A DNA stretch of 32,000 bases, taken from positions 4,440,001-4,472,000 of the forward strand of contig CP001848.1 of NCBI GenBank assembly GCA_000025185.1, read 5' to 3'. The notes below the pieces were generated by a model. It had not been told where the DNA came from and ran no database searches. It saw nothing but the letters and a program-made list of their open reading frames with translations. Source of the DNA: Pirellula staleyi DSM 6068 (GTDB lineage Bacteria > Planctomycetota > Planctomycetia > Pirellulales > Pirellulaceae). Shown in pieces: positions 4,850 through 30,012 of the stretch. A program made the position numbers and the translations under genes. The first letter of the stretch is position 1, and each line of letters starts with the position of its first letter.

Positions 4850-6879
4850 CGATCCTCAAGAAGTGCGACCTCGCTTCCAAACGATCCGAGCCTTCGGTCT
4901 GGATCAGCAAACTGGCGTTGTTTGAATCCCTCGATCCCCTGACACCGATCCGGGAACCGATAAAGTTTCACACGGGGCTGAACATCGTCTGGGGCGTCGA
5001 GAACGAAGCCAACGACGAGAAGTTCGAACCAGGCCACGGCGTTGGCAAGACTACCCTCTGTCGGCTGATTCGGTACTGCCTCGGTGAACCAACCTACGGA
5101 CAGTCGCATGCGGCCAAAGAGATTCTGAACACGTTTCCCGATGGCCACGTCGCCGCAGAGGTCTACATTCAGGGCCGGCGCTGGGCAGTATTGCGTCCCT
5201 TCAACAAGACCCGCGCGGACCGCGCACAGGGCGACGCCACAATCACGGAGCTGCTTGCCAATCCACCGCTCAAGGAGTCATTCCGTGAGTATCAGAATCT
5301 GCTGGCGTCAACTTGCCTCTCCGGACTCAGCACTGATGGCGTGCTGACTGGTGGGGCCTCGATCGAATGGCTCCATCTGCTGGCCCTGTGTTCTCGCGAT
5401 CAGGAGGCTCGCTACCAGAGCCTGTGGCAGTGGCGTTCACCGCGAAGCGATTCGGCCCCTCGAAACATTCAAAAAGATGACGCCCATCTGACGCTGCGGT
5501 CCGTCCTCGGCCTGCTGCCCGATGAGGAAACCACGCTCCAGAAGAAGTTAGCAAAGTACGACAGCGAACTCGCCCAGGTCGAGAAGGACATCGCCGAACG
5601 CGTCCGCGAACCTGAGTACTGGACACGGCACTACCGTCAGACTTTGGAACGCGACTTCAAGATCAAGGATGCGACAAACGCTTCTCTCCAACCTAATGAC
5701 TTGTACGGGATTCCCGAACTCGTGAAGGCAGCCATCAGCAAGCGAGATCAAAAACAGATCGAACGCAGTACGAGACTGGACGAACTTGAGCGGCACATTG
5801 CAATGGCCGGTAGCCTTTTGCTCGAACCCGCAGAGCATCAACAATCCGTCGAGGCCGCCGGGAATGTTACCAAAGCTGGTGCAGATACATTCACGGAAAG
5901 CGTTGAGGAGTTGCGACGACTTCGAAAAGAAATCGAAGACATGGGGATCTGGCCCTGCAAGTACGCCCACCCTCTATTGATTGGGAATTGTCAGCACACA
6001 AATCAGAGGCTCGTTAGTCTCGATTCCGAGATTCGCGATGCCTCAGCCCAAGAGCTTCCAAAATCTGCCAGGAAAGACCAGCAGGCCGCGGCGCTTCGTC
6101 AACAATCGGAACGCCAGAAGACTGGCCTGACGAAGCAACGTGAGCAGTTGGACGCTTACATCAAAGAGCGTCGCGCTCTGAACGACAAGCGGATCGCCGC
6201 AGACAAGGACATCCGGGCGTTGCGAGCAGCGCTAACCAGCCTGGAAACATGGGAACAGATTCGCACTGGAATGGTTCCTGACTCGGACCTCGCACAACTT
6301 CAGAAGCGAAAGAAGAGTCTGGAAACCAGGCAGACAACTGCGAAGGGACAGCTGACAGCTCTTCTCGCATCACAGGATCAGTCGCTCACGAAACTACGGA
6401 CTGTCTACGAAGCGCTTGCCCGAAACACGCTTTCAACCGAATTCAACGGGCGTGTTCTGCTCACGAGCGAGGGCCTTGAATTCCGCGTGTTTCGGGGCGA
6501 GAACCTTTCCGGGGAAGCCTTTGAGACTCTTTCGATCTTGCTGGCCGATATCGCGGTGCTACTGATGGGATCGCTCGGCGCTGCGTCTCACCCCGGAATC
6601 CTGATTCACGACAGTCCGCGAGAGGCGGACCTGGGCGGTCATATCTACCGCCGACTTCTTCTCTCCGTGGCTGAAGTGGCTGGTGAACTAGCGGTTGACG
6701 ATACCGTTCCGTTCCAGCAAATCGTCACGACAACGACGCCGCCTCCCCCGACGCTGAAGAAGAAGGCAACAACCTGCCTGAAGCTCGGTGGAGAAGAAGG
6801 GCAGTTGTTTCGCAGGCAGTTGCATGCGATGGCCACGACTCAGCAGTCCTTCGGATTTGACATGGAGAATGGCGAATGA
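4846..6879 (+). CDS. SMC/Rad50-like ABC ATPase with long coiled-coil insert
   Basis: The N-terminus FHTGLNIVWG...PGHGVGKTTLCRLIRYCLG contains a Walker A motif. The middle (aa ~230-520) is charged and heptad-rich. The C-terminus has a signature-like NLSGEAFETLS followed by a Walker-B-like PGILIHDSPREADL (Asp-Ser rather than Asp-Glu). ATGA overlaps occur at both ends (4846-4849 and 6876-6879). Confidence 0.75.
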   Translation: MTILKKCDLASKRSEPSVWISKLALFESLDPLTPIREPIKFHTGLNIVWGVENEANDEKFEPGHGVGKTTLCRLIRYCLGEPTYGQSHAAKEILNTFPDGHVAAEVYIQGRRWAVLRPFNKTRADRAQGDATITELLANPPLKESFREYQNLLASTCLSGLSTDGVLTGGASIEWLHLLALCSRDQEARYQSLWQWRSPRSDSAPRNIQKDDAHLTLRSVLGLLPDEETTLQKKLAKYDSELAQVEKDIAERVREPEYWTRHYRQTLERDFKIKDATNASLQPNDLYGIPELVKAAISKRDQKQIERSTRLDELERHIAMAGSLLLEPAEHQQSVEAAGNVTKAGADTFTESVEELRRLRKEIEDMGIWPCKYAHPLLIGNCQHTNQRLVSLDSEIRDASAQELPKSARKDQQAAALRQQSERQKTGLTKQREQLDAYIKERRALNDKRIAADKDIRALRAALTSLETWEQIRTGMVPDSDLAQLQKRKKSLETRQTTAKGQLTALLASQDQSLTKLRTVYEALARNTLSTEFNGRVLLTSEGLEFRVFRGENLSGEAFETLSILLADIAVLLMGSLGAASHPGILIHDSPREADLGGHIYRRLLLSVAEVAGELAVDDTVPFQQIVTTTTPPPPTLKKKATTCLKLGGEEGQLFRRQLHAMATTQQSFGFDMENGE

Positions 6880-7886
6880 GCAATTCACGTACGGTGACAG
6901 AAAGAAATGCGATTGCGGCCGTTCAGCGTTATGTCGAATCCGATTGGTTCAGCCGTTGGCAAGAGTTCGAGGCGAGAAACGACGATGGTGTCGATGGCAT
7001 AGTCTTCCTACGCAAGAAGAAGTTGGACAAGAAGAGCAATAAGCCTGACAAGGCACCTGGCTATACATCATTGCCGATTCGTGGGGTATTGTTCGTGCAG
7101 GTAAAGGGTGGCGAAGGCTATGCCGGACAATCGCAAAAGCGACCGGACCACATAGAGATCAACCTTGGCGAGGAGTATATCAACAACCATCGCCCTCGAT
7201 GGGATGCGCTACCAGGGCCTGCGATTCTTGTTTACGTTAACACGGCCAATCTCAAGCAGAATCTCGATGCGTGGTGGACAGACCTGAAAGTTGATTCAAC
7301 CTATTCGGATGATAACAAGCAGATCGTGCTTGTCCCCAAATCACAAAGATTTGGACCACACTCCAAGGGGCACATGAGACGGCTTCTTGGACCTGAAACT
7401 CAGTACGATGCACATCTGCATCCTCTCACAGCCGTCCATAAAGACTCGTCATACGTCTCCATTGTCCTTCCCCTGAAAGCGTGTGCTCGGAGCTTCTATC
7501 GAGAGTGGTCAGTTCTACCGGCTTCGGAACGCACACATCCAGGGCTCGGAGAGATTCTCGTGACGCGAAACGGATGGCGACACATCACAAGGAAGGGCCG
7601 AAGACACGAGCGTATCGTTCAGTCATTGCAACTGCTCGGTATTGCCAAGCGGATGATCAAGGAAGTTAAGGACGTCGGTTGGGTTGGTCGAATGGAAGAA
7701 CGCCAGCTAAAAAATGGGACAATTCAGCGGCGCGAGTTGTTAGGCATCCGAGCAAGGGTCAAATTCCCCTTCCGGCAGGAGAGTGTGATCCAAGTGATTC
7801 TCGAACGAAAGCGGATATATGGAAAGAGTCTGATCTCAGAACGAACCACGTTTTACTCAGTCTACGAAGCAAGGCGGGGGAAATAA
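6876..7886 (+). CDS. DUF4365-like PD-(D/E)xK nuclease-fold protein with unassigned basic C-terminal half
   Basis: ERNAIAAVQRYVE...EARNDDGVDGIVFL...GVLFVQVKGGEGY fits the DUF4365 pattern (E..a..v ... D.G[IV]DG ... vQvK). The C-terminal ~170 aa (..VTRNGWRHITRKGRRHE..FYSVYEARRGK) are not recognised. The start overlaps the upstream stop (ATGA). Confidence 0.6.
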   Translation: MSNSRTVTERNAIAAVQRYVESDWFSRWQEFEARNDDGVDGIVFLRKKKLDKKSNKPDKAPGYTSLPIRGVLFVQVKGGEGYAGQSQKRPDHIEINLGEEYINNHRPRWDALPGPAILVYVNTANLKQNLDAWWTDLKVDSTYSDDNKQIVLVPKSQRFGPHSKGHMRRLLGPETQYDAHLHPLTAVHKDSSYVSIVLPLKACARSFYREWSVLPASERTHPGLGEILVTRNGWRHITRKGRRHERIVQSLQLLGIAKRMIKEVKDVGWVGRMEERQLKNGTIQRRELLGIRARVKFPFRQESVIQVILERKRIYGKSLISERTTFYSVYEARRGK

Positions 7887-8043
7887 AAAAGGACACGTAC
7901 CAGTGCGATTCAGCATTCTTACGTCGAAACGCAGGTCTGTTAGGCAAAGGCCGTGTCCAACCGCGAGTTTACGATAGCCTTTCCGTCGAAGCAAGGCTCG
8001 GAAAAAGTTGGCGTGTCACTTCAGAAAAAGAAGCGATTGAGAT

Positions 8044-11000
8044 ATGAAGAAGCGAAAGCGGAAGAAGGAAAAATCTCCGAAGAAGCCGGTCGCTCAGCAG
8101 CCGAGTCTGTCGAGCGACTTCGTTTCCATGAAGGCGATGTACCAGGCATATCAAAAAGCCAAAGTCGACGTCTTCTACGAGCGTTCGCAACCGAGGTCGC
8201 AGGAGTTTTGTGAATACGAACGAAACCTGCACGCCAATCTCACCGCACTGCAGAAAACCCTGACTCGGCCTCGTACCAATTGGTTCAAAAGCAACGACTT
8301 CATTGGTAGTTACGGGTTCATTCCCAAAGGGTTGCAGATTCCTGAGCCCGATGGGGATCAGGACAGCGCCGCGCACTTCAGCGTGTCCAATCCTGACGAT
8401 GCTTGGAATGTGATGATGACGTCCCTTGGAGAAAAGAGGCCCATCGCTGAGTTCCGGCCTGTCGCGCTATTCACCGTCAATATGTATGTCGTGTGTGCAC
8501 TGTGGGTGAATCTTGTCGGTCACATGTTCGATGCCTGCCTCGACAGTTCTGCTCGTGGGACACGGCTGAGGCGTCTCCGGCAGACTGATGAAGAACTCCC
8601 GGAATGCGGCCGCTATCACCTTTCTGCTCCGGGTTCGTTCAAACCCTATTTCAGCTGTTACAAGGAATGGCGTGAGAAGGGGCTACGAGCCATTCGGCAG
8701 GAACTGGCCAAGGATCGCAAAGTCGTCGCCATAACGATGGACCTCAAGGCGTTTTATCACAACGTCGATCCGAAGTTCATCCTGAATGAGAAATTCCTCG
8801 ATGCAATCAGATTCAGTAATGTAAACGGTAGCGGGCTTTATGCTGCTGAGGAACGTATTTTCACTAAACAAATTGTCACTGCGTTCCTGACTTGGGCAAA
8901 GAAACTGCCCCATCTCAAAGCCGATACGCCACCCGGCCTTCCCGTTGGGGTTTCCGCCGCTCGGATCGTCGCGAATGTTCTGCTCGCCGAGTTTGATCGA
9001 CTCGCCCAGCAGAAACTCGATCCGATCTACTATTCGCGGTACGTCGACGACATCTTCCTGGTATTGCGCGACAACGGGAGAATGCGGACTTCTCGGGATG
9101 TCTTGAAGCACCTCTGCCGCAGAATCAAGCCCTTGAACGCCAACGACGACCTGTCCGTACTGACGCTGGCGTTTCCTTACTCCAATGGCTGCAAGCTCTT
9201 GTTTCAGGCAAAGAAGCAGCGTGTGTTCCTGCTTTCAGGAGAAGTGGGGGCCGACCTGCTTGATACAATCGAGAGTCAGATCGACGCAGTTTCCAGCGAA
9301 TGGCGGCTTCTGCCCGACCTCGATGCCTTGGAAAAATCACCTGCGGCCAAGATTCTAACAGCGACCCGCCGCGCCGATGAGAACGCAGATACCCTTCGCA
9401 AGGCTGACCAGTTGTCGCTGAAGCGACTCAGCTTCTCGATCATGCTGCGCCAGTACGACACGCTGGCGCATGATCTTCCTCCGAATGAGTGGAAGCGTGA
9501 ACGAAAGAGGTTCTATCGGTTTGCGGAACGCCACGTTCTGACACCTCTGAGGCTCTTAGATCTGAACGACTATCTACCTCGCCTCCTCGGCTTGGCTGTT
9601 TCCTGCCGGGACTGGACAGTCGCAGGCGGTTTTCTCAAGCGAATTTCGGACGGGATTGAACGACTTCGCAACAACGTGAGTGTAGAGCCGAACGCTGGCG
9701 CAGACAGCCAGTGGGAAGCTTACCTCCGACATCTTCAGACGGCCCTCCGCGAAGCGGTTGTTCGATCCTATCCGCTGAAACAAGACAACCATGCTGCTGA
9801 AAATGCTGCGAAATCTCTCCTCGAAGTGATTGATGCCCTGAATCCGCTGTCATTAAGCAATCCCCAGGATATTTCAGCTTTGTCGTGTGAGCTGTTCTGG
9901 ACCGATCTGGGGCGTATTCCATTCAAAAATGCGTTGCTCGGATATGTTTCGCTTCCACCCTGTACTCTGAAGCCTTTGAAAAGGAAACTTCCTAAGAGTC
10001 AAATGAAACGACTCGGTGTCATCCGGGAATTCCTTCGCGGAGCCGACACGGCCGATATCAAGGTGCAACCGCTTCTGTTTCCAACGCGTCCATTCTCGCC
10101 CCGTGAAATAACAGAATTCGACTGCCGGAGCGCATGGGAACTGGATCGACTCAGGGATTACGTAGTCGCCCTGCGCGGAACCTGGGTAAAGCCGGTCGCC
10201 CACACTTCAAGAGCTGCCAAAACCGCTCCCGCGCCCGAAAGTGGTAGCCCCAAAACTCGCGAAGTGCTGGTTTTCGGTGATGGCAACCGAAAGCATGTTC
10301 CCAGAATTGCAATCACGAGTTTTCTAACCGAAGAATCCAGTTGGGCGAAAGCAGCGGAGGGAACTCCAGAGTTGTCTGCCGAGCGGTACAAGCGTCTCGT
10401 CAGGCTAGCAAATGCCGTCGTAACTTCACCTCATCGAGCGGAGTATGTCGTTTTCCCGGAATTGTCGATACCTCGCAGGTGGCTTCCTGGATTGGCAGGA
10501 CTGTTTATAAAAGCCGGGATATCGCTGATCACGGGCGTTGAGTATCGACGTGTCCCGCCAGAGCCTTCATCACAGGTGGTCAATGAGGCTTACCTCGTGC
10601 TGGCAGACGACCGGCTTGGCTACCGGTCCTGGTGTGTCGTGAGACAGCAAAAAGGCGTTCCTGCACATCACGAGCGAGACGAATTGCGCAGCAAGTTCGG
10701 ACTCACCTTGGCTGCACCTGCCTCGAAAGACGACCCGAAGCCAATCTACCGCCATTTCGGGCATGGTTTCGGGGTCCTGATTTGCAGCGAACTCACCGAT
10801 ATCCGCTTTCGGCAAGAGATGCGCGGCGATGTCGACACGCTGTTTGTGCTCAGCTGGAATCAGGATTTGGAATCGTTTGGGGCACTGGTCGAGGCCGCTG
10901 TTCTGGATGTTCATTGCTACATGGTGCTCGTCAACAATCGGAAGTACGGAGACAGTCGCGTCCGAACGCCATCCAAGAAGAACTGGATGAGGGATCTGGT

Positions 11001-11178
11001 TCGGATCAAGGGCGGGCTGGACGACTATTTTGTGGTCACCGATCTGGAAATCATGTCGCTCCGCAATTTCCAGAGTTACCACGAACCTCCACTTGGTGAT
11101 GACGCCTTGTTTAAGCCGACACCTGAGGGGTTCAAGATCGCCACACGTAGGAAGCAAACACCACGAGGCAATCCGTGA
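8044..11178 (+). CDS. Reverse transcriptase fused to a C-terminal nitrilase (carbon-nitrogen hydrolase) domain; DRT1/UG1-like defence RT
   Basis: RT motif A is VVAITMDLKAFYHNVD, motif B is GLPVGVSAARIVANVLLAEFD, and motif C is YSRYVDDIFLV (YVDD at 9040-9051). An Abi/UG-type N-terminus is present (AMYQAYQKAKVDVFYE...NLHANLTALQKTL). The nitrilase triad candidates are VVFPELSIP (Glu), RQQKGVPAHHE (Lys) and GVLICSELTD (Cys codon 10783-10785). The start is uncertain: ATG 8044 gives a Lys-rich leader MKKRKRKKEKSPKK, and an alternative ATG lies at 8128. Confidence 0.85.
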   Translation: MKKRKRKKEKSPKKPVAQQPSLSSDFVSMKAMYQAYQKAKVDVFYERSQPRSQEFCEYERNLHANLTALQKTLTRPRTNWFKSNDFIGSYGFIPKGLQIPEPDGDQDSAAHFSVSNPDDAWNVMMTSLGEKRPIAEFRPVALFTVNMYVVCALWVNLVGHMFDACLDSSARGTRLRRLRQTDEELPECGRYHLSAPGSFKPYFSCYKEWREKGLRAIRQELAKDRKVVAITMDLKAFYHNVDPKFILNEKFLDAIRFSNVNGSGLYAAEERIFTKQIVTAFLTWAKKLPHLKADTPPGLPVGVSAARIVANVLLAEFDRLAQQKLDPIYYSRYVDDIFLVLRDNGRMRTSRDVLKHLCRRIKPLNANDDLSVLTLAFPYSNGCKLLFQAKKQRVFLLSGEVGADLLDTIESQIDAVSSEWRLLPDLDALEKSPAAKILTATRRADENADTLRKADQLSLKRLSFSIMLRQYDTLAHDLPPNEWKRERKRFYRFAERHVLTPLRLLDLNDYLPRLLGLAVSCRDWTVAGGFLKRISDGIERLRNNVSVEPNAGADSQWEAYLRHLQTALREAVVRSYPLKQDNHAAENAAKSLLEVIDALNPLSLSNPQDISALSCELFWTDLGRIPFKNALLGYVSLPPCTLKPLKRKLPKSQMKRLGVIREFLRGADTADIKVQPLLFPTRPFSPREITEFDCRSAWELDRLRDYVVALRGTWVKPVAHTSRAAKTAPAPESGSPKTREVLVFGDGNRKHVPRIAITSFLTEESSWAKAAEGTPELSAERYKRLVRLANAVVTSPHRAEYVVFPELSIPRRWLPGLAGLFIKAGISLITGVEYRRVPPEPSSQVVNEAYLVLADDRLGYRSWCVVRQQKGVPAHHERDELRSKFGLTLAAPASKDDPKPIYRHFGHGFGVLICSELTDIRFRQEMRGDVDTLFVLSWNQDLESFGALVEAAVLDVHCYMVLVNNRKYGDSRVRTPSKKNWMRDLVRIKGGLDDYFVVTDLEIMSLRNFQSYHEPPLGDDALFKPTPEGFKIATRRKQTPRGNP

Positions 11179-11321
11179 AGGACTGCGTCTGAGCGAGGAT
11201 CGCGTGATAGTGAAGGCAATCTTGAAAAAAAGCGATGCAACCAACCAGACTCAGAAGTATGAGAGTTCTGAAGCTGGAGGAACTACAAACCGCCGGCTGG
11301 GCACCGTAAACTAAGTACTCC

Positions 11322-13304
11322 ATGGACTATTCAAAGACAAATAATACGGCCTCAAAAATGCCTGCTGTCGGACAGCAAGTAGCGCTGAACATGTTTCCGC
11401 TGATCGACCAACGCTTCCCGTTCAAAGTATTTCGACGTCTGGCAGAGGCCAACGAAGGGGCACCGGATGAAGGAATCCGCAAGTATTCACTCCCGCCGAA
11501 CGGTACGGTCCAGGGCACCGACGATCCTTGGCCGCAGTTCTGGGTGTCGTTTGAGGCCAGAGACGGCTTCCTTCCATTTGCGGGTGATGCCAAAACAAAC
11601 CCGCATCTCGCGATGGCATTTCTGTTTCACCTATTGGTTGTCTCAGCCAAAGCATCGGGGCTAGAGCACTTCATTCAGGATGGAATCAAGAAAAAGGTTG
11701 CATTTGTTCTCGACACACATCCCGAGGGAAAAAGTTGCGTTTGGCTTTCACCGTATCAGTGCCGGTCCGCTCGCTCGATTGGTTTCCTGGTCGATTTCTG
11801 GTTCCGCAAGGAAGAGGTACAAGCCCTGAATCGCGAAGTTCTGCGCCTCAGTCATGCGCTTAACGCTCAGTATCGCGAAAACACGGACTTTTACGCGACA
11901 CGATATGCGTCACTTCAGCAGTTCCTTGATCGCATTTATCCTAGCCTGTTTCCGCTACAGTTATCTGAATACCCGCCGATGGATATTCGCAAGACCCTTC
12001 AAAACGTCGACTCCTCACTTCTGAAAACAAAGATGTACTTGGCGGGAGGTTCAAAGCCTTCATCGTCTCAATTCACCGCTGTCAAACTGGACGGACCGAT
12101 TCAGCGTGTGACAGGAGACGTTCGTATTTGCTTTGTGTATCAACCGCAAGACAAACCCCTCTCTCACGACCTCTACAAAGCACTTCGCGGGGACACATAC
12201 AGTCAGTTTCTCGGCATGGAGAGGATGTTTGGGTTCAGCTTGGGAAAGGAGCACGTCTTCGGCATACCAATTCAAGACTACTCTCCTGACGAACTGGCGA
12301 CGGCAACTACGGCTATCAAGGCGCAATCGGGTGGGGCACTGGTCGTTCCGATAGTTCTGATTCCGTGGTTGCGGCATGACACCGAAGACTTTTCTGACCA
12401 ATATTATGTCACAAAGCACGCCTTCTTGAAGGCAGGGCTTCCGTCACAGTTTGTCTCTACCAAGACAATCCGAAATAAGGCGTCGTTCAAGTGGACTGTC
12501 AGCAACATTGGTATGGCCGTCTTTGCCAAACTTGGTGGGAAGCCTTGGAAAGTGGTCTCGGAGAATGATGACTGCTTGATTGTGGGAATCGGCCAGTCCC
12601 ATCGTTGTGGTGAAGACAAGACGATTAGTCGGTACTATTCCTATTGCGTACTTACCGATTCCAGCGGGTTGTATGAAGACGTGCGTGTACTTGGAAAGGA
12701 TACCGATGAGCGCTCTTACCTGACTCGTTTTGCCGACAACTTGTTAGAGATATTTCGTGGGCATTCGCAGCAGTTCAGTCGCTTTGCTATTCACACGCCG
12801 TTCAAGCTCCGCCACGAGGAAATGACGGCAATTCAGGATGCAATAACGCGATTCACTCTCGAAACGCGACGACCGATGACATTCGCCGTTCTGAAGTTCA
12901 ACGCCGATAGCGATTTCATTGGATATTCTGCGACCACTAATGCACGCGTCCCGTTTGAAAGCACACTTGTTCCACTGTCTTTTCAGGATTTCCTCGTCTG
13001 GTTCGAGGGATTGCAATTCCACAAGAGTACCGTGGAACGTCGCTATGGCCGCCCAGTTCACGTTGAGTTTATCTATCCGCATTTCGACCGAAAGAGTCGC
13101 GGTTCCGGCTTGTCGTTGGAACAAAAGAGCGTCTATTTGCAGGACAGCCTCAATCTCTCTGGGGCAAACTGGAGGGGCTTCAATGCAAAGTCTCTTCCCG
13201 TCTCGGTCTTTTACGCGAAGCTCATCGCGCGATACTTCAGCCAGTTTGAACGACTCGGCCTTGAGGAGTGCGAATTGGATAACCTAACACCATGGTTTCT
13301 GTGA
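11322..13304 (+). CDS. Catalytically inactive prokaryotic Argonaute (MID-PIWI preceded by only ~270 aa)
   Basis: The PIWI hallmark NIGMAVFAKLGGKPWKV is present (KLGGKPW at 12528-12548). The first slicer Asp position reads LIVGIGQSH (Gly codon 12591-12593). The RDG-type site reads FAIHTPF. MID-like features include DLYKALRG and YYVTKHAFLKAGLPSQFV. The C-terminus ends ...LTPWFL. Confidence 0.8.
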   Translation: MDYSKTNNTASKMPAVGQQVALNMFPLIDQRFPFKVFRRLAEANEGAPDEGIRKYSLPPNGTVQGTDDPWPQFWVSFEARDGFLPFAGDAKTNPHLAMAFLFHLLVVSAKASGLEHFIQDGIKKKVAFVLDTHPEGKSCVWLSPYQCRSARSIGFLVDFWFRKEEVQALNREVLRLSHALNAQYRENTDFYATRYASLQQFLDRIYPSLFPLQLSEYPPMDIRKTLQNVDSSLLKTKMYLAGGSKPSSSQFTAVKLDGPIQRVTGDVRICFVYQPQDKPLSHDLYKALRGDTYSQFLGMERMFGFSLGKEHVFGIPIQDYSPDELATATTAIKAQSGGALVVPIVLIPWLRHDTEDFSDQYYVTKHAFLKAGLPSQFVSTKTIRNKASFKWTVSNIGMAVFAKLGGKPWKVVSENDDCLIVGIGQSHRCGEDKTISRYYSYCVLTDSSGLYEDVRVLGKDTDERSYLTRFADNLLEIFRGHSQQFSRFAIHTPFKLRHEEMTAIQDAITRFTLETRRPMTFAVLKFNADSDFIGYSATTNARVPFESTLVPLSFQDFLVWFEGLQFHKSTVERRYGRPVHVEFIYPHFDRKSRGSGLSLEQKSVYLQDSLNLSGANWRGFNAKSLPVSVFYAKLIARYFSQFERLGLEECELDNLTPWFL

Positions 13305-14605
13305 TGCCACCCAAATCGAACACAGTCTTTAAGCGAGACGAAATCGTCTTGCTCCTCGGTGCAGGAGCTAGCGTTCCAGCGCAGATTCCGGCATCGCAGG
13401 GGATGATTACGGAAATCGAGAAACTACTGGATTCCTCATGGGCCGACTACAAGAGCCTTTATTTCTTTGTGAAGAGTGCCATTCAGTTCTCAGACGGCAT
13501 TCATGGGCGATTCGACACAGATACTTTCAATGTCGAGAAGCTTGTAGAAACGCTCGATGACTTGAGGCGCGGCGACGAACATCCGCTTTACCCATTCGTC
13601 GGTGCATGGGTGCCCAAGCTATACGAGGTTGCTGGTTCAGACCTGAAAAAAGTCACTGCCTTCCGTGAAGAGATTGTTCGTCGACTCCGCGACGATTGGA
13701 TCCAACTGAAGTATCGAGAACACGCTCAGTATTTCGCTCACCTTGGGCGGTTTCAACGAGAGCTACAGGAACCTCTCCGCTTGTTTACATTGAATTACGA
13801 CTTGTGCGTTGAGACAGCATTGTCGGATGTATCGGACGACTCGTCGATCACATTTGAGCGAGGATTTGACGAGCAAAAAAGGTGGGACTGGCGTCGATTC
13901 GAGTATGAGCGCGGAGTCGGTCCGCCAGATATTTACTTGTATAAACTGCATGGATCGATTGACTGGACTCGCGACGATAATGACAACCTCACTTATCGTG
14001 ATGCAGTGTCTCAGATCAATCCGGAGGACTTGGCGATTATCTCCGGAACGCCAGCGAAGTTGCAGGCGGTCGACCCATTCCTTTTTTTCGCGTACGAACT
14101 TCGCAAATGGACGCTAGAAGAGGCTCGACTGATCGTAACGATCGGCTATGGTTTTGCCGATGACCATATCAATGGGATTCTCCGGCAGTCTCTAAAAGGA
14201 AATCCTGCACGGCAACTGCTTGTCGTTACGTTCATTAAAAACAATGAAAACGCGGAGGAAGTCGCACACAAACGCCAATGCGAGATCGCTCGCAAGATTG
14301 GCATGTTTAAGGACGACGAAGATAATCGCCAGCACCCAAACTATCAGATTATTGTGTGGGGGTGTGGTGCGAAGGAGTTTCTTGAAAAGAAGCTTACTAT
14401 AGAGGGCTTGGGAGGACTGTTCCCGGCAGAAGACACTTTGTTCGATGAAGTCACTATCAACCACCTTTTGAGTGAACCACCGCAGGTTGGGCAACTGGAC
14501 CCTTCTGAAAATGGTCAATCAGGCAATAAAAATATCGATTCTTTAGCATTAGTTGAAACCGCGAAACCTAAGAGAACGAGAGGGCGGGGCCGGTCGAAGA
14601 AATGA
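13292..14605 (+). CDS. SIR2-family (SIR2_2-type) protein, putative NADase effector
   Basis: Motifs are VLLLGAGASVPAQIPASQGM (13358-13372 encodes GAGAS), LFTLNYDLCVE, YKLHGSIDW (His codon 13949-13951) and VTIGYGFADDHINGIL. The gene overlaps the Argonaute stop by 13 nt, or by 1 nt if ATG 13304 is used. It ends in a basic tail KPKRTRGRGRSKK. Confidence 0.8.
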   Translation: MVSVMPPKSNTVFKRDEIVLLLGAGASVPAQIPASQGMITEIEKLLDSSWADYKSLYFFVKSAIQFSDGIHGRFDTDTFNVEKLVETLDDLRRGDEHPLYPFVGAWVPKLYEVAGSDLKKVTAFREEIVRRLRDDWIQLKYREHAQYFAHLGRFQRELQEPLRLFTLNYDLCVETALSDVSDDSSITFERGFDEQKRWDWRRFEYERGVGPPDIYLYKLHGSIDWTRDDNDNLTYRDAVSQINPEDLAIISGTPAKLQAVDPFLFFAYELRKWTLEEARLIVTIGYGFADDHINGILRQSLKGNPARQLLVVTFIKNNENAEEVAHKRQCEIARKIGMFKDDEDNRQHPNYQIIVWGCGAKEFLEKKLTIEGLGGLFPAEDTLFDEVTINHLLSEPPQVGQLDPSENGQSGNKNIDSLALVETAKPKRTRGRGRSKK

Positions 14606-15170
14606 CAGTAGCCTGTTGGAAAACTCGATAACAACGCAGTTATCCCTTAGGATTCCCGAAAAAGTCGCGCGGCTTCAATTTCAGGCGGGATTTTCAACAA
14701 GCTGCTTTGGGATTCTTCAACGAAGTAAATCGACAGATAGCTCGCGCTGAATGTGAAATTGACGCTGGGCATACAATAGCGGCGTTGGCGATAGGCGAAA
14801 GTGTCTTCAGCCACCGTTTCCTAGACGATAATCGCCCCTTATCTTGGCTGCCGACTATCGGGAAGTTCTTTCGCCAACTTCTGCAGGATCACTTCGGTGG
14901 TGAGGGCGGCGAAGATGCGAGCGTCGTTTTCTTTATCTACTAGCGTCGCTCTGTTTATGTGACGTCAAGTTCCTTGTGAAGGAAGTGTCCGTTCGGTCAA
15001 GCGCGTTATGGATATTCACGGTTGAGGCGTCGGGAGGTGGCTTTCTTGGGCGAGAGGAGGTGGGCAAGGTTTGCAGCGGGCGAACTGCGAGCGGCTGAGT
15101 GTGTGGGCGGGAGCGATTGCGGGAAGTGGGCGGCGGGTCTTAGTGTGATCGATTAACGCTGCGGAGAGCG

Positions 15171-15602
15171 TCATTGCGGAGCCAGCGGCTCCGCAGCATC
15201 TTCCGCTTTCCAGATGTCGGGCAGGAACTGCGCGAGTTCATTGGCGGGTGTCTGACCGATCTTGGCCAGAACGCTCGTGAGGTACGCCTGCGGATCGACG
15301 TTGCTGCGCTCAGCGCTGGCGAGGAGCAAACACAGCTTCGCGTGGCTCGCAGCGGCCGCTTCGTTACCAGCAAAGAGCCAGTTTTTGCGGCCGATCGCCA
15401 CGCGCTTCAGCGCCCGCTCGCTGGCGTTGTTGTCGATGTCGAGGAAGCCTCGCGTGGTGTAAGTCGTCAGCGCCGTCCACTGGTTCTGTACTTCGCGCAT
15501 CGTCGCGCTCACCGAGTCGACCATCACGCTCGGCGATCGTTCTCCGCCAGGCATAAATCGCCGACTCGGCCAGCTGTTCGCGGCGACAGAACTCGCGCAC
15601 AC
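15171..15602 (-). pseudogene. IS66-family transposase, C-terminal fragment only
   Basis: ...REVQNQWTALTTYTTRGFLDIDNNASERALKRVAIGRKNWLFAGNEAAAASHAKLCLLLASAERSNVDPQAYLTSVLAKIGQTPANELAQFLPDIW matches the conserved IS66 transposase C-terminus. The DDE core is absent. Confidence 0.75.
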
Positions 15603-15699
15603 TTAACTCGCTAGAAGCAAACCGCTGAAACACCCCACGCCAAAAACCTTCCCTCGCCGAACCCCGCTGCTGCCGCGCCATGCCAAAACTCCTGGTCAC
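15364..15699 (-). pseudogene. IS66-family accessory (TnpA-like HTH) N-terminal fragment
   Basis: Only the first ~55 codons look genuine (MARQQRGSAREGFWRGVFQRFASSELSVREFCRREQLAESAIYAWRRTIAERD). After about nt 15535 the frame runs out-of-frame over the transposase C-terminal fragment, which marks a deletion junction. Confidence 0.55.
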
Positions 15700-15761: not shown

Positions 15762-18700
15762 TCAGAACTTGCGAAGCCGAATTCGTAATTCGGCCGCCCG
15801 TTCGGGTTGTCCGGCTTTCACCAGCAAATCCACCAGCGGAACCATCTCTATCTTCAGCCAATTTCGATTGCCTGCGGCCGACATACATCGTTCCACGAGT
15901 TCGACCGACTCTTCACCTCGTAGGCCGCCTGCCCAACCCAGATCATTGGACTGCGTCCCTGCTTCCTGCCACTGGACGACTCGCTCCACCGAGCATCGAC
16001 AGAGTTTCGCAAACGCATGTTCCGTCGACTCGCTAACCACGACTCCTGGTTGCCTTTTTTCGTCGCCAAGTTTAGGAGTATTCGTCCCCGAGATGAGATC
16101 CTTCAGCGTGAAGTGCAGATCGCAAAACGCACCCAAATTCCCGCGTCTCAGGATCGTCTCGATCACAGACACGAGTTTGAGAAATAGAGTCGTACGCTCG
16201 TTGGCATTCGGTTCATCTTCAACGACAGAGCAGATCGCATCCAATGGTAATAGCTCACTGCCATCGACGACCTCGGAATCGAACGGCCAACGATCGACGA
16301 CTTCCCCGACTAAATGTAGCCATGCCTCGTAGGCACTCTTGGTCTTGTCCTCGACTTCGTTTAGTGCTTCTCGCGCTCCGATCAACACACCGCGCAGAAA
16401 GTGCTTCAGAGTCGATGGTTCGGGCCAGTTGTCGGCGAGTGATAGATCCAGCAGCTTGCCGATCTCGGCAAAGGATTCACGGCTATCGGGCAGGGTTTGG
16501 ACGATTCGTGCGCGCCCCAGAAGCTGTGCGATCTGCCCCAGCGAGTCGTCGTGCCCACCGAGCTTGACACGTACCAACAAATCGCCGAGCTCCGGTGCCG
16601 AACGCGACTCCGCGATCCACAGAAGATGGTCGACGGCGTAACGCACGACAGCCGCATTCGGTTCCGTTCGGACAATCTCGGCCAGCAACTTCTCCAACTC
16701 AGGATATGTAACGAAGTACCAAGTCTCCAGAGATGCGAGGATGGTGGCTCTGGAAAAGGGCGGCCAATCTGACCATCGGCCACAGACTGCCGCCTCCAGT
16801 CTCGCCTGGAACTCGGAGAACGGTGGCTGATGCGCGCTCGCCAGCACGCTATTCACAAAATTTGCCGCCCGCATAAAGATATCGTTTGAACTCCAGGTCA
16901 ATTGCCCATCCGGGATCCTTTCCGTGTGTGACGCGGGGCAGGGCCCAAGAAGTGACTCGATGGCCACTTCTAGCATCTCACGCCACCAAGGTGTGTATTC
17001 GTTGAGCAGTTTCTCCCAGGCAGAGGGTTGCAGGAGCGACCTTGGCGCTTCGAGTTGGGAGACCATGTAATTTCGCAGCGCATGTACCAGTTCGCTGCAC
17101 CAGCTAAGTGTCGTCGCCAACCACGCCTCTGTTTTCGCTTCTTGCCTTGCAAGCACGTGGACCAGAGCTTCGCTCCGTGCGATCGTTCCGGCATCCACTC
17201 CGCTGCCTGCTGCAACTTTGGCCTCCGCAGCGTTCCGCCGCTCGCCTAGGAGCCGAATCCGTTTGTCATCCTCGGCATGCGGCCAACCCATCTCGTGACG
17301 TGGCTGGGAGGAGATGAGACCATGACCAGTCCTGAACAACGGCTCGGTTCGCAGATCGATGGGTTCGCGGAGTTTCCCTTCAGTTTCTGCAACCTGCACT
17401 AGTCCCAGTTCGTCGGCAGAGAGATTCCCCCAATCGCGAAGGTCCGAAAGCTCGCGAAGTCGAATTCGCGGTGACAGCGAAGAGCTCCGAATTGCGCTTA
17501 CAACTCGTTCCCGATCTGCGGCGGCCAAGGTGGTGGGTAGCTGCCGCCGCAGTAGGCGACGCACATCGCTCAAGGACTCAAGATTCGTCACCCGAGCATC
17601 CGCGAGCAACTGTAAGCGCAGGGCGTCCTGCCAATCGCGTTTCTTCTCCGATGTATTGCCGGCATCGAGCAGCGAAAGCATGGGCAAGATAATGAGCGCA
17701 GCGAAGCGCGTGTCAAGCATCCCGTCGGTGAACGCCTGAAAACCTGTCGCGTCAGGCATAATTGCCAGCTCCGACAGTGCCAGGTCCAGTGCCGCACGAA
17801 CTCGCACCAGGGGCTTTTGGCAATCCCGCTCCGAGAACACACTCAGCTGTGGCTCTTCGTCAAACCTGGGAGAGAAATTCTTGTCAGACTCTTCTCCCAT
17901 TTCTTTTGCGATACTTAGCCGCGTGTCTTCGCCAACGCGCTGCCGGGCCACAATCAGCGCCGCCAGCAGTTCGATCGCAGTCCGTCCCCACGTCTCCAGA
18001 TGCAGAAGCAGGCCGGGGCTCTCAATCACCTTAAGTAGACTCCGCTCGAACGGAATCCTACGAGTGACGAGCGCTCCGGTGACAATTGAACCGCGCTCCG
18101 CGTCATCAATCCCCAAGGTTGCGCGAAAGACTTTGCAGGCCAAGTCTACGGCGCCGTCGGTCAGCAGGTTACCGATCAACTCCAGCAGTCTGCCAAAAGA
18201 ACACGAGTCGGAAGCGCTCGCCACTAAGATCAGCCACTCATCGATTCCCGGGTCGCCATAGGCCCTCGAAGCAACGATGGCATCCAAGAGCAGCCGAAAA
18301 GTCGATCTGGAACATGGGAGTTTCAATCTCCATCGGGCGAGTTCGCGCTTCACAAGTCGCTTTACGACGGCGGGTTCCCCCGCCCCCTCGGCCCGACAAA
18401 CCGTCAGTTCGTACTGTACGGCGGCAGTTTGCAATCGATCTCCCTGAGGCCCAAGAAAGCGTACATCCTGGAGACCCGCTACCTCTACGCTCCAGTGGGG
18501 AACTCGGAGACTCACGGCCAAAGTCAGTGCATCCGCCACGAGTGCATCGGATAATCCGCTCAGTGCTCCTGTGGTCGCCGGGCCTTCAAGCAACACAATG
18601 AGCGCCTCGCGCGCTAGTCCGTCGTTGAGCATCGCAAGCTCCGACAGGTATTCCGTCGTGGAGCCAGCGGTGTCATTTCCCATGACCCACTTGAGACCGG

Positions 18701-20579
18701 CGGCGGCGGCCGAGCGCGCGACATGATCCTCGGTGCACGCGGCGACAATGGTTCGTGAGAGCAAGATCGCATTCGGGGTGGCGATCCGCGCTAGCATGGT
18801 CTGAACGAGCGAATATTCTCGCAGCCAATCGTGACTCCAGGCGACGGCGGCCGCACCTTGCTCGCGGATCACCCCTTCCAGGAGCAACATTTCAATCCCC
18901 TGCGCTGTTTGTTCGTCCGCGCCTTGGCGTGATAGGAAGAGGTTGCCAGCTAAGGACTGATCGCCTAAGAACAACGCTGCCTTGCGCTTCGCTTCCTGGG
19001 ACACATCACTGCTCCCGACGGCCCGTTGTCCCGTGCTGACGCCACGCACGCGCCGTTGCCAAAACATTTCAATGACCTGGAAGGCTGTGACTTCGCCGCT
19101 CTGCGCCAACGGCATGTCTGTGGGTCCGACAATGTCTGCGTACAGTGACAACAGATAAAGATTCCGCAAAGCATCGATCAGCTGTGGATTCTTCGGGACG
19201 GGAAGTTTAACCTCAGAAAATGATTGCTCGACCTGCGAAATCGAAAGGAGTTCAAGGTCGACCTTATGCAGCGGGGCAATCGCCGTTTCCAACCATTCCT
19301 GTATCGCGAGAACTTCGCGTCGCACCGTGACCAGTACGGTTAGGTTCGGAAGGTCCGTCAGCGCGGCGAGGACTCGAATCCACTGCTGACTCAAGCTGGA
19401 CGGAATTTCGTCCAACCCGTCGATCGCGAGCCAAGTCGGGCCTAAGCCGCAAAGTAAGCAACTTAGCTGGAGCAACGAGTCGACTTGCACCTGGCCGAGA
19501 GCACGGGCCTCGACCCGAAGTGTGCGGCTGGCGTGTCGCCACTTGGCCTCTTCGTCAAACGCCAACTGGCTGGCCACGGTCTTTCCGCACCCCATGTTAG
19601 CGACGAAGCACTCGGAGCGGCTGGAATCGTACGTGGGAGCCCGCTCACTCAGCGACCATCGCGTGACGGGATTGCCCGGCAGGTTTCGCCAGACAATCCG
19701 TCCCGCTGGCCGAGTGAACCCGGACGCTGCAGAAAACGTCATCAAATCCCGCAGCACATCACCAACACTGTGCTCGACGGTGGCAGTCCCGATCGTCGCG
19801 ATAAACTCTGGCACAGTGAATTCAGCCTTTTTCTTCCCCACCACCTCTTCCGTCAGCACGCCCGTCACAAATTTCTGGACCGACGCCGCCGTGCCCGTGG
19901 CAAATACACCCGTCGAAAGCAGCTTGATGGATTGATCGAGTTCCTCGAACCGATGCCGGGCAATGCGCAGATTTGAAAGTAGCGTCTTGGCTTCTCCGGT
20001 TGTGCATGCCCGCGGCCATTTTGATTCTGGCGAGAGCGGTATGATCTTCTTCTTTCGCTTCGCCTTTGTTGCCTCCTTCTTTGAGACTTTCTCACCTGTG
20101 TAGTGGCACAATCGCCAAACGGCCTCTTGCAGTGCCGCCTTGCTCGACACCAATCGCTTAGGCAATGTCGCAGGGAGCCGATTCAAATCCACATCGCAAA
20201 CCGCAAGTGGAATCCCCTCCAAGTAGCCGAGAATGTTCGCCGTTTGCTTACCTGGATCGGTGACCCAGACCGGATGTATCCGGTCTGCCGCGGTTCCACC
20301 TGCAATCTCTCGCCGAAGCCGATCGTAAAAGGTCAGGCGATCCTCTTTCGTGATCGTAGTATTCTTACACTCATGGAGGTCCAATACTCCGTCAGAGTAC
20401 TCAAAGAGAATGTCCCATATAGGACCAACAACGCCACCTCGTCCCTCCACGACGAAACGTACCAACTTGGCATGGCCACCCACGATCTTCGCCGCATCCA
20501 AAGCGAGCTGGCTAAGGACACGGTGTTGCACGTAACGCTGCTGATAAACTAGCCCCAAAAGACTATCTTCGCCCGGCAT
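15762..20579 (-). CDS. STAND (NACHT-like) NTPase with N-terminal Cap4/DUF4297-like PD-(D/E)xK nuclease and ~1,100-aa helical C-terminal region (Avs-like)
   Basis: The N-terminus LLGLVYQQRYVQHRVL...VRFVVEGRGG...WDILFEY...LDLHECKNT shows a nuclease pattern (GxxYQ ... E ... D ... ExK). Walker A is FVANMGCGKTVAS (around 19576-19599) and Walker B is TWLAIDGLDEIP (around 19407-19427). The remainder is Leu/Ala-rich and repeat-like. Confidence 0.75.
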   Translation of the reverse strand: MPGEDSLLGLVYQQRYVQHRVLSQLALDAAKIVGGHAKLVRFVVEGRGGVVGPIWDILFEYSDGVLDLHECKNTTITKEDRLTFYDRLRREIAGGTAADRIHPVWVTDPGKQTANILGYLEGIPLAVCDVDLNRLPATLPKRLVSSKAALQEAVWRLCHYTGEKVSKKEATKAKRKKKIIPLSPESKWPRACTTGEAKTLLSNLRIARHRFEELDQSIKLLSTGVFATGTAASVQKFVTGVLTEEVVGKKKAEFTVPEFIATIGTATVEHSVGDVLRDLMTFSAASGFTRPAGRIVWRNLPGNPVTRWSLSERAPTYDSSRSECFVANMGCGKTVASQLAFDEEAKWRHASRTLRVEARALGQVQVDSLLQLSCLLCGLGPTWLAIDGLDEIPSSLSQQWIRVLAALTDLPNLTVLVTVRREVLAIQEWLETAIAPLHKVDLELLSISQVEQSFSEVKLPVPKNPQLIDALRNLYLLSLYADIVGPTDMPLAQSGEVTAFQVIEMFWQRRVRGVSTGQRAVGSSDVSQEAKRKAALFLGDQSLAGNLFLSRQGADEQTAQGIEMLLLEGVIREQGAAAVAWSHDWLREYSLVQTMLARIATPNAILLSRTIVAACTEDHVARSAAAAGLKWVMGNDTAGSTTEYLSELAMLNDGLAREALIVLLEGPATTGALSGLSDALVADALTLAVSLRVPHWSVEVAGLQDVRFLGPQGDRLQTAAVQYELTVCRAEGAGEPAVVKRLVKRELARWRLKLPCSRSTFRLLLDAIVASRAYGDPGIDEWLILVASASDSCSFGRLLELIGNLLTDGAVDLACKVFRATLGIDDAERGSIVTGALVTRRIPFERSLLKVIESPGLLLHLETWGRTAIELLAALIVARQRVGEDTRLSIAKEMGEESDKNFSPRFDEEPQLSVFSERDCQKPLVRVRAALDLALSELAIMPDATGFQAFTDGMLDTRFAALIILPMLSLLDAGNTSEKKRDWQDALRLQLLADARVTNLESLSDVRRLLRRQLPTTLAAADRERVVSAIRSSSLSPRIRLRELSDLRDWGNLSADELGLVQVAETEGKLREPIDLRTEPLFRTGHGLISSQPRHEMGWPHAEDDKRIRLLGERRNAAEAKVAAGSGVDAGTIARSEALVHVLARQEAKTEAWLATTLSWCSELVHALRNYMVSQLEAPRSLLQPSAWEKLLNEYTPWWREMLEVAIESLLGPCPASHTERIPDGQLTWSSNDIFMRAANFVNSVLASAHQPPFSEFQARLEAAVCGRWSDWPPFSRATILASLETWYFVTYPELEKLLAEIVRTEPNAAVVRYAVDHLLWIAESRSAPELGDLLVRVKLGGHDDSLGQIAQLLGRARIVQTLPDSRESFAEIGKLLDLSLADNWPEPSTLKHFLRGVLIGAREALNEVEDKTKSAYEAWLHLVGEVVDRWPFDSEVVDGSELLPLDAICSVVEDEPNANERTTLFLKLVSVIETILRRGNLGAFCDLHFTLKDLISGTNTPKLGDEKRQPGVVVSESTEHAFAKLCRCSVERVVQWQEAGTQSNDLGWAGGLRGEESVELVERCMSAAGNRNWLKIEMVPLVDLLVKAGQPERAAELRIRLRKF

Positions 20580-25243: not shown

Positions 25244-25443
25244 CTCAGTCGCATCGGTGTCAAAGTCAACGGGAAATTCTTTAATGTACGTCCGAAGCGT
25301 CTGCGGGTCGCAATCCGGGAAGCACTCATCCGAATAACCAGCTTCTACATGGGCGACATTCCGGAGCGGACATGGATCGAAACTAGCACGAACAAGAACC
25401 TTTGGCGATCAATTCGTGTCCTCCGATAGAATCGCCATGCAAT

Positions 25444-25449
25444 AAGGAG
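25444..25449 (+). promoter_or_regulatory. Shine-Dalgarno AAGGAG for the AlbA_2 gene
   Basis: aataAGGAGcacggaATG, with a 6-nt spacer to ATG 25456. Confidence 0.5.
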
Positions 25450-25455
25450 CACGGA

Positions 25456-26469
25456 ATGGCAACGTCGTTAGCACGTCAGTTCTTTGAGAAAGCAGTGGCC
25501 GGTGGCTCTGCGTTCCTGAAAAACCTGGTGACCGAGCAGCAAGTGGAAACCGAATGGCTCGACTTCAAGGGAGTGAGCCGAATGGATAACACACAGATGA
25601 GCGGCAATTGGAGTAAGTTCATCTGCGGATTCGCCAACAACGAAGGCGGCGTGGTGGTATGGGGCATCGACGCCCGCAAAGACAGCAACGGTGTCGACTG
25701 TGCTTGTGGTCTCTCGTTGTCGGCCGATCCCGCGTTACTTCGTTCCCGGTTGCAAGAGCTTCATCCGCGTGCCACCGATCCGCCTCTAAGGGGCGTTGAA
25801 TCTGTCGCCATCCACGAGACCGGTGACAGTGGGCCAGGCTTTGTCGTGTCATATGTGCCTGAAAGTGACGTGAAGCCTCACCGTGCGGAACTGATGGAGA
25901 ACAAGCCATATTACCTACGGGTTGGCGACTCGTTCCACAACCCGAGTCCATCGCTCTTGCGGAACCTGTTCTTCCCACGGTCGAGCACTAAACTCCGCGT
26001 CTCAGTGCAACCAGACTGGCAGAAAGTCAATGTGCCAATGGCAGCACCACCACCGAAGGACATGGAGGTTATTTATCGATTTCATCTTCACAACGCGGGG
26101 ATAGTGACGGCAAGGGACGTCTTTCTCATTATCGAAACGGAGCCTGAAGGGCTGGCGATTGAGACACCGTTCAAGGTGAATAAGGCCGAAACCGAATTCG
26201 GAACAGGTATTGATTTTCCCCGACCACTGCATCCGTCGAGTAATTCCCACGTTTGTGCGGTTCGTTATCGAGTAGCCGCGAGCAATCGGACGAGTTTGCC
26301 TCTAACCGCGTTCGTGCCTCAACTCACGAACTTCGCTGCGAACTTTACTATCTACGCAGCAGACATGCAGCCTTCCAAACTGCGAGTTGAAGTGGGCGAC
26401 CGGGATTTGGATTTGAAGCGGAAGAAATGGTCCTTTCCGATCCTGGAAGAGAACGGCCAACGAGCGTAA
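25456..26469 (+). CDS. AlbA_2 (Schlafen-type) domain protein with unassigned beta-rich C-terminal half
   Basis: EQQVETEWLDFKG...WSKFICGFANNEGGVVVWGIDARKD fits the AlbA_2 pattern (E..lEfK ... i.AfANt.GG.l.iGv.d). ATG 25456 is preferred over the track's TTG 25402 because of the SD. Confidence 0.7.
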   Translation: MATSLARQFFEKAVAGGSAFLKNLVTEQQVETEWLDFKGVSRMDNTQMSGNWSKFICGFANNEGGVVVWGIDARKDSNGVDCACGLSLSADPALLRSRLQELHPRATDPPLRGVESVAIHETGDSGPGFVVSYVPESDVKPHRAELMENKPYYLRVGDSFHNPSPSLLRNLFFPRSSTKLRVSVQPDWQKVNVPMAAPPPKDMEVIYRFHLHNAGIVTARDVFLIIETEPEGLAIETPFKVNKAETEFGTGIDFPRPLHPSSNSHVCAVRYRVAASNRTSLPLTAFVPQLTNFAANFTIYAADMQPSKLRVEVGDRDLDLKRKKWSFPILEENGQRA

Positions 26470-30007: not shown

Positions 30008-30012
30008 GGTCT

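Follow-up and report, generated by a model that had tools for sequence, protein, structure and literature searches.

Psta_3428 and Psta_3429 of Pirellula staleyi very probably form a canonical BPAS pair of long-B Argonaute and SIR2 protein

The 32,000-nucleotide stretch of Pirellula staleyi DSM 6068 analysed here (the window; GenBank assembly GCA_000025185.1, contig CP001848.1, forward-strand positions 4,440,001 to 4,472,000) carries, within a defence island, two overlapping genes that encode a 660-aa Argonaute (Ago) and a 437-aa SIR2 protein. The pair is very probably a canonical BPAS, a system type defined by Song et al. 2023 (Nat Commun 14:6970, PMC10620215) as a long-B prokaryotic Argonaute (pAgo) together with the SIR2_2 protein bAgaS, in which the Ago would sense invader DNA and switch on a SIR2 that destroys NAD+. 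By exact sequence match the Ago is WP_012912354.1 / ADB18092.1 (Psta_3428), and the SIR2 protein is WP_012912355.1 (Psta_3429); both open reading frames (ORFs) lie where an earlier note on this DNA, made from the letters and their translations, had placed them (Table 1). All of the defining features of BPAS that can be addressed by sequence or by model are present, and nothing contradicts membership. The Ago is a member of the long-B clade by its MID-PIWI half (catalogue row, PADLOC, profile matches) and is a single chain of the order N-L1-(PAZ* or none)-L2-MID-PIWI with a YK-type MID pocket. The effector is a stand-alone SIR2_2 protein (og_44/bAgaS), homologous to GbbAgaS and free of APAZ, whose NAD-site residues are intact, including the equivalent of GbbAgaS N155. 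The two genes form a simple operon, conserved across hosts, with the Ago directly upstream of the effector.

Both proteins are matched at full length by profiles built for pAgo defence systems. The PADLOC model pAgo_II (PDLC02381) covers Ago residues 18-660 (profile 2-617 of 617, E 7.7e-216) and Aga_SIR2 (PDLC02408) covers SIR2 residues 13-382 (profile 3-340 of 343, E 2.1e-124), full-length matches that exclude chance. Pfam assigns Piwi to Ago residues 358-638 (E 2e-12) and SIR2_2 to the SIR2 protein (E 1e-12), the latter being the only Pfam family above cut-off on that protein. The Ago also has its own row (WP_012912354.1) in the catalogue of Ryazansky et al. 2018, where it is filed as long-B, 660 aa, with a YK motif ('YK-putative') and with borders of PAZ 110-157 ('small'), MID 258-408 and PIWI 409-637; the row is blank in the field reading 'putative' for long-A rows, a field that is taken to be the catalytic-tetrad call.

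The closest functional comparison is with GbBPAS (GbAgo HAG96803 and GbbAgaS HAG96802), the system characterised by Song et al. 2023 (PMC10620215). In that study GbbAgaS alone is toxic, GbAgo suppresses the toxicity, and the two proteins co-purify; a CloDF13 plasmid leads to NAD+ depletion, and with the substitution N155A the NAD+ loss and the toxicity disappear. The same authors report that long-B pAgos are catalytically inactive, that og_44 proteins co-evolve with their Agos, and that a pAgo upstream of its effector is the rule in BPAN, BPAS, and BPAM operons. By BLASTP the P. staleyi Ago is 29% identical to GbAgo (E 2e-52) and collinear with it, with no large indel (GbAgo residues 2-393 compared), so that its N-terminal lobe (N-lobe) has the same architecture; the SIR2 protein and GbbAgaS share 36% identity across 370 aa (E 3e-67). 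The two systems share the two-gene layout with the Ago upstream, their proteins are collinear and of matching size in the parts compared (the core of the SIR2, and the N-lobe plus MID of the Ago, from GbAgo 1-393), and a stand-alone SIR2_2 effector with an identical catalytic Asn is common to both; the dead PIWI of the P. staleyi Ago has its counterpart in the inactivity of long-B pAgos reported by Song et al. The differences are the low identity (just 29% for the Ago and 36% for SIR2), an additional unconserved basic tail of ~55 aa on the P. staleyi SIR2, an unconserved N-terminal extension of ~18 aa on its Ago, and the host, which is a planctomycete here and a gammaproteobacterium for GbBPAS. 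The P. staleyi Ago is not named in the supplements of Song et al. 2023, and it would be placed in their og_44 subclade by homology, not by a reading of their published tree.

In the Ago itself, the MID residues Y361, K365, Q376, and K403 do not vary across 60 Ago homologues and make up an intact YK-type 5'-phosphate pocket, and the C-terminal PWFL (residues 657-660) is likewise invariant in this set. The earlier note had reported PIWI hallmarks combined with a loss of the slicer positions, and both observations are borne out. The motifs FAKLGGKPWKV (401-411), LIVGIGQSH (419-427), and FAIHTPF (488-494) are found in the translation, and in the AlphaFold2 model of the Ago (pLDDT 90, pTM 0.89) the strands 418-425 (CLIVGIGQ) and 487-492 (RFAIHT), which from general knowledge of the PIWI fold we take to be the carriers of the first and third tetrad residues, contain no acidic residue. 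At the presumed catalytic Asp positions G422, G424, and H491 are invariant among the same homologues, and the PIWI domain, as judged from these residues, is dead, with its slicer residues gone. The best fold matches of the whole chain in the PDB are RsAgo ternary complexes (TM 0.70). In the MID-PIWI part, the profile of the Ago family matches AfAgo at 7e-32, the BPAN Argonaute EcAgo at 1.5e-25, and RsAgo at 3e-17, whereas the short pAgos in the SiAgo (8znj) and SPARSA (8in8) complexes are matched at merely ~1e-5.

The SIR2 protein contains the motifs GAGAS (residues 23-27), NYD (168-170), and HGS (220-222), which the earlier note had described as intact-looking. Across 79 family sequences N168, D170, and H220 are invariant (79/79) and GAGAS is nearly so, and N168 is aligned with the catalytic N155 of GbbAgaS. 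The conserved core of the protein (residues 13-382) lies wholly within the 343-position Aga_SIR2 model, and the PADLOC SIR2-APAZ model reaches residues 15-43 only, so that the view of the SIR2 as a separate protein without APAZ is upheld. By sequence, the nearest solved structures are 8w9l, 8yhx, and 8j4u, deposited as SIR2-like or SIR2 family. Outside the conserved core, the protein continues into a low-complexity, basic tail of ~55 aa that ends in KPKRTRGRGRSKK; occupancy falls to 6-8% over the last 40 residues of the alignment, and most family members are without the tail. This tail looks disordered and is too short for APAZ, and it could add a local twist in P. staleyi.

The gene junction, CCATGGTTTCTGTGATG, offers two candidate starts for SIR2. 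With the first ATG (13292) the overlap between the genes is 13 nt; because this ATG is made up of bases from a Pro and a Trp codon (CCA TGG) that are invariant in the Ago family, it may be incidental. The second ATG (13304) shares 1 nt with the TGA stop of the Ago (TGATG), which is the most frequent junction of the family (17 of the 79 scored junctions). Either start leaves the genes overlapping and in the order Ago then SIR2, as the earlier note had stated. The 433-aa version of SIR2 that begins at 13304 is absent from the protein collection searched, and the public annotation is therefore the longer form.

Strict linkage of the two genes was observed well beyond P. staleyi. A search with the Ago returned 147 homologues at E <= 1e-10, nearly all full-length ones measuring 620-668 aa, and a scan of species-representative genomes gave a set of 80 loci from many phyla (including Planctomycetota, Chloroflexota, Bacteroidota, Acidobacteriota, Cyanobacteria, and spirochaetes). 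A SIR2 homologue begins between -35 and +21 nt from the Ago stop (mode -1, TGATG), on the same strand, in 80/80 of these loci, and the reverse transcriptase (RT)-nitrilase gene that lies upstream of the Ago in the window was found in 0/80. These two counts mark the Ago and SIR2 as a self-contained two-gene module from which the RT-nitrilase is separate. Ago and SIR2 are strictly co-inherited. The earlier note had made its proposal depend on such co-conservation; its presence points to a known system, not to a new one.

Table 1. Coordinates of the Ago-SIR2 pair and its parts in the window (position 1 is the first letter of the window)
Feature	Position	Strand	Basis
Long-B prokaryotic Argonaute, predicted catalytically inactive, putative BPAS sensor	11322..13304	+	PADLOC pAgo_II, Pfam Piwi, Ryazansky table, AlphaFold2 model, GbAgo collinearity
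N-terminal lobe, residues 1-257 (N, L1, vestigial PAZ, L2)	11322..12092	+	N-lobe model, Foldseek
Residues 110-157, catalogued 'small' PAZ (PAZ*); beta-hairpin region in the model	11649..11792	+	Ryazansky table and PAZ alignment row; model strands
MID domain, residues 258-408, with YK-type 5'-phosphate pocket	12093..12545	+	Ryazansky borders; Y361, K365, Q376, K403
PIWI domain, residues 409-637, without DEDX tetrad	12546..13232	+	G422, G424, H491; profile matches
Gene junction with two candidate SIR2 starts (13292 and 13304)	13292..13306	+	Junction sequence; gene spacing across the family
bAgaS-type stand-alone SIR2_2 NADase effector (predicted)	13292..14605	+	PADLOC Aga_SIR2, GbbAgaS alignment, N168/D170/H220
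Lineage-specific C-terminal SIR2 tail, ~residues 383-437	14438..14602	+	Alignment occupancy; PADLOC model end at 382

For the N-lobe, the earlier note had concluded that the region ahead of the MID is too short for N-L1-PAZ-L2 and of the size of an APAZ module. This view is partly right: the lobe is compact, its best matches are modules without PAZ, and to compare its size and shape to those of an N-L1-L2/APAZ module is reasonable. When residues 1-267 are modelled by themselves (pLDDT 90), the top Foldseek match is AfAgo-N (an N-L1-L2 protein without PAZ; TM 0.49/0.54), followed by APAZ modules (SPARDA, SPARSA, and SPARTA), which rank above the N-lobes of PAZ-bearing Argonautes. In a profile alignment, the Ago family is ~60-75 aa shorter upstream of L2 than EcAgo, for which the published borders are N 1-92, L1 92-155, PAZ 155-218 (a hairpin of ~60 residues), L2 218-308, and MID from 308. 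A 'small' PAZ has already been catalogued for this very protein, and the shortness of the lobe is not new. Four model strands lie in or near the catalogued segment (116-120, 124-133, 136-147, and 152-163), and residues 1-17, at the start of the chain, show no conservation and low model confidence. Alignment of the family profile with the N-terminal 399 aa of EcAgo (hhalign) gives a weak pairing with the PAZ hairpin, at a probability of 21% that is a hint only, and a profile of the N-lobe alone against the PDB returned nothing but unrelated proteins (best E ~0.3), so residue-level mapping by sequence failed. The PAZ of this Ago is at most a remnant of ~50 residues in a compact N-lobe, and residues 110-157 may be either a true PAZ remnant or a part of the L1 sheet.

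Reduced PAZ domains in Agos of this kind are established in the literature. Ryazansky et al. 2018 likewise assigned a 'small' PAZ to the Ago of Treponema medium and to EbAgo; the T. medium PAZ fragment given there ties to the Treponema members of the present Ago family by short-query BLASTP, and a fuzzy-regex search of the family loci for the fragment found nothing. According to Manakova et al. 2024 (NAR 52:2530, PMC10954474), single-chain long-B pAgos show all degrees of PAZ reduction up to complete loss (illustrated in a figure on PAZ presence, reduction, and loss that uses EbAgo), and a conserved ThsA-like Sir2 gene is found downstream of such pAgos. EbAgo (WP_076783222.1, Epilithonimonas bovis) is itself one of the 80 loci of the Ago family (L066): it measures 636 aa, is 34% identical to the P. 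staleyi Ago, and is followed 12 nt downstream by a 350-aa SIR2 gene. This 'single-chain long-B pAgo + Sir2-like' type presents no difference in kind from the P. staleyi pair, and the combination of a PAZ-poor single-chain long-B Ago with a downstream Sir2-like gene had thus already been described by Manakova et al. 2024.

A compact N-lobe that by itself matches AfAgo-N and the APAZ of SPARDA, SPARSA, and SPARTA ahead of PAZ-bearing Argonautes, next to a SIR2 protein that has no APAZ, could be taken as the outcome of a capture, in which a short pAgo acquired the APAZ of a SIR2-APAZ protein and left a bare SIR2 behind; the pair would then be a re-partitioned SPARSA-like system of new architecture. 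This explanation is very improbable. The MID-PIWI profile is nearest to the long-B Agos AfAgo, EcAgo, and RsAgo and far from the short pAgos, RsAgo can be superposed along the entire chain, the SIR2 belongs to the SIR2_2/ThsA-like type, and the PADLOC SIR2-APAZ-pAgo model covers the MID-PIWI alone (residues 369-646), not the N-lobe. Moreover, the Ago is catalogued as long-B, and published work already places the family in the long-B clade. The likeness between the N-lobe and APAZ is expected from common descent and is no sign of capture, because APAZ is homologous to the N-L1-L2 of long pAgos (PMC10954474). The 'non-canonical partition' proposed by the earlier note does not hold: an Ago followed by its effector is the BPAS rule, and N-L1-(PAZ)-L2 joined to MID-PIWI is the definition of a long pAgo. 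The note had itself held that its claim of novelty would lapse if the Ago belonged with already characterised long-B Agos and their SIR2 partners, and this is what was found, since the catalogue entry for the exact Ago reads long-B and 'small' PAZ and the pair is collinear with the characterised GbBPAS.

Two further explanations leave the canonical architecture in place and question either the partnership or the chemistry. Unrelated systems stand side by side in the crowded defence island of the window, and the long-B RsAgo interferes with plasmids in a heterologous host (as summarised in PMC10620215), so the Ago might silence plasmids alone in the manner of RsAgo next to a SIR2 that belongs to another defence system or is a housekeeping sirtuin. 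Such a chance neighbourhood is the least probable of the alternatives and is already refuted by co-conservation, the SIR2 homologue being directly downstream (-35 to +21 nt) in 80/80 loci as against 0/80 for the RT-nitrilase; the findings of Song et al. (PMC10620215) that og_44 proteins and their Agos co-evolve and that GbAgo co-purifies with GbbAgaS speak against it as well. There is also a slim chance that the SIR2 is the effector but not an NAD+ glycohydrolase, acting instead as an ADP-ribosyltransferase, deacylase, or nuclease, the last being what the older literature supposed for SIR2 proteins associated with pAgos. Ryazansky et al. 2018 took SIR2 domains to be putative nucleases, and the orthologue in P. 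staleyi is known from its sequence alone; GbbAgaS, however, lowers cellular NAD+ and loses this effect together with its toxicity upon N155A substitution (PMC10620215), the equivalent Asn and the accompanying Asp and His are invariant here (N168, D170, H220), and the closest solved relatives (8w9l, 8yhx, 8j4u) are deposited as SIR2-like or SIR2 family.

Comparison with other Argonaute- and SIR2-based systems places the pair more closely. EcBPAN (EcAgo with bAgaN; cryo-EM 23wq, NAR 2026 gkag865) and RsAgo have in common with it a long-B Ago, a dead PIWI, a YK-type MID, a reduced PAZ, and an effector gene downstream; the effector there is a PD-(D/E)XK nuclease, however, whereas here it is a SIR2, and the EcAgo N-lobe is ~60-75 aa longer with a defined 63-aa hairpin PAZ. 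EcbAgaN could not be co-purified with EcAgo, in contrast to GbAgo and GbbAgaS, which co-purify (Song et al., PMC10620215). With SPARSA the pair would share the logic of a dead Argonaute that senses nucleic acid and turns on a SIR2 NADase, and its N-lobe is structurally APAZ-like. In SPARSA, by the account of the earlier note, the SIR2-APAZ gene lies upstream of the Ago. The SPARSA Ago is limited to MID-PIWI (~450-500 aa) and its APAZ (the N-L1-L2 equivalent) is fused to a SIR2 of the SIR2_1 subfamily, whereas in P. staleyi a well-folded N-lobe of ~250 aa is part of the single 660-aa Ago chain and the partner is a SIR2_2 protein without APAZ; the short Ago and the SIR2_1-APAZ fusion that define SPARSA are thus both absent. 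The split long-B system fAfAgo (AfAgo-N and AfAgo) supplies the best sequence match to the MID-PIWI (AfAgo) and the best fold match to the N-lobe (AfAgo-N), and its N-L1-L2 is without PAZ. The N-lobe of fAfAgo is a separate polypeptide in A. fulgidus, however, and its downstream partner, Af1317, is not a SIR2; the P. staleyi Ago is single-chain, with N-lobe and MID-PIWI in one ORF, and the gene upstream of it is the unrelated RT-nitrilase. In Thoeris, SIR2 is fused to a SLOG sensor (ThsA) and accompanied by a TIR protein (ThsB). Pfam found no SLOG or TIR in the SIR2 protein and no TIR match was reported among the scanned neighbouring ORFs, so the Thoeris layout is missing and only the SIR2 fold is shared with ThsA.

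If the P. staleyi pair operates as GbBPAS does, the Ago would bind the SIR2 protein and keep this otherwise toxic partner silent, and would load short 5'-phosphorylated RNA guides. Pairing of a guide with invader DNA (plasmid or phage) would release or activate the SIR2 NADase, and the resulting NAD+ depletion would cause the infected cell to die or arrest before the invader spreads (abortive infection). An Ago-SIR2 complex and invader-triggered NAD+ depletion are known solely for GbBPAS and are extrapolated here to the P. staleyi pair. Several points weigh against this account as a whole. The guide type, the trigger, and the logic of inhibition and activation are extrapolated, because the two proteins are just 29-36% identical to those of the tested system. 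The searched literature contains no experiments on the P. staleyi pair ('Pirellula staleyi' and 'Argonaute' co-occur only in a 2011 CRISPR-Cas review) and reports no solved BPAS complex. A promoter and terminator scan around the operon gave signal counts no higher than those in shuffled sequence, none of them convincing, and the borders of the operon are accordingly drawn from gene spacing. Because no solved BPAS complex is reported, the activation route of BPAS could also differ from those of SPARSA and BPAN. It is suggested tentatively, and with rather more doubt than confidence, that BPAS Agos lack any true PAZ and that residues 110-157 are part of the L1 sheet; in structure, BPAS would then be the unsplit equivalent of the APAZ/short-pAgo heterodimer, and its SIR2 would dock non-covalently at the place that the fused effector takes in short systems.

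The genes around the pair give the window the character of a defence island (type IIG/DrmMI-like methylase, LmuB-like ATPase with DUF4365 protein, UG5 RT-nitrilase, IS66 remnant, 1605-aa protein, and Schlafen/AlbA_2 protein). GC content is 0.49-0.56 across 7-15 kb (7001-15000, containing the RT-nitrilase and BPAS) versus up to 0.63 at the window ends, a difference that fits a horizontal origin of the defence genes. The RT-nitrilase fusion (8044-11178, +, 1044 aa; PADLOC RT_UG5-nitrilase (DRT) E 3e-283, Pfam RVT_1 E 4e-7) is on the same strand as the Ago and separated from it by 143 nt on the upstream side; it was considered as a BPAS component and rejected, and its absence from all 80 homologous BPAS loci marks it as an independent defence gene. 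Directly downstream of the SIR2 gene, where GC rises from 0.49 to 0.61, is the C-terminal remnant of an IS66-family transposase (15171-15699, -, 143 aa; Pfam DDE_Tnp_IS66 3e-15 and IS66_C), and the remnant and GC jump probably mark the edge of the acquired island.

Further upstream, three genes whose stops and starts overlap (230-7886, +) encode a 1539-aa type IIG/DrmMI-like N6 methylase (PADLOC DrmMI 1e-56, Pfam Eco57I), a 677-aa LmuB-like SMC ATPase (PADLOC LmuB 4e-17, no Pfam match), and a 336-aa DUF4365 protein (Pfam 9e-26). DUF4365 is a RecB-like nuclease domain of the Mrr subfamily (Ryazansky et al. 2018), and the trio has the look of a methylase joined to a Lamassu-like module. Beyond the IS66 remnant, a 1605-aa ORF (15762-20579, -) is without a match in PADLOC and has just a faint one to NACHT in Pfam, under the cut-off (E 9e-4); the ORF may encode a large defence ATPase of STAND/NLR-like kind. 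A Schlafen AlbA_2 protein (25402-26469, +, 355 aa; Pfam 9e-10) is located 11 kb from the pair and is not linked to it; Ryazansky et al. 2018 found the DNA-binding AlbA_2 domain fused to several long-B pAgos and also in pAgo-associated proteins. The far end of the window holds a DUF1501 and DUF1553/PSD1 gene pair (28610-31779, -; Pfam 6e-134 and 6e-94). Both of these families are very common in planctomycetes, in keeping with P. staleyi as the host.

The BPAS type was named and characterised in 2023, and this exact Ago has been in the pAgo catalogue since 2018, so the pair carries little weight as a discovery; what it supplies is a clean annotation for Psta_3428 and Psta_3429. The P. staleyi pair adds one datapoint to the very wide spread of BPAS, which covers 80 species-level genomes with strict linkage of the two genes.

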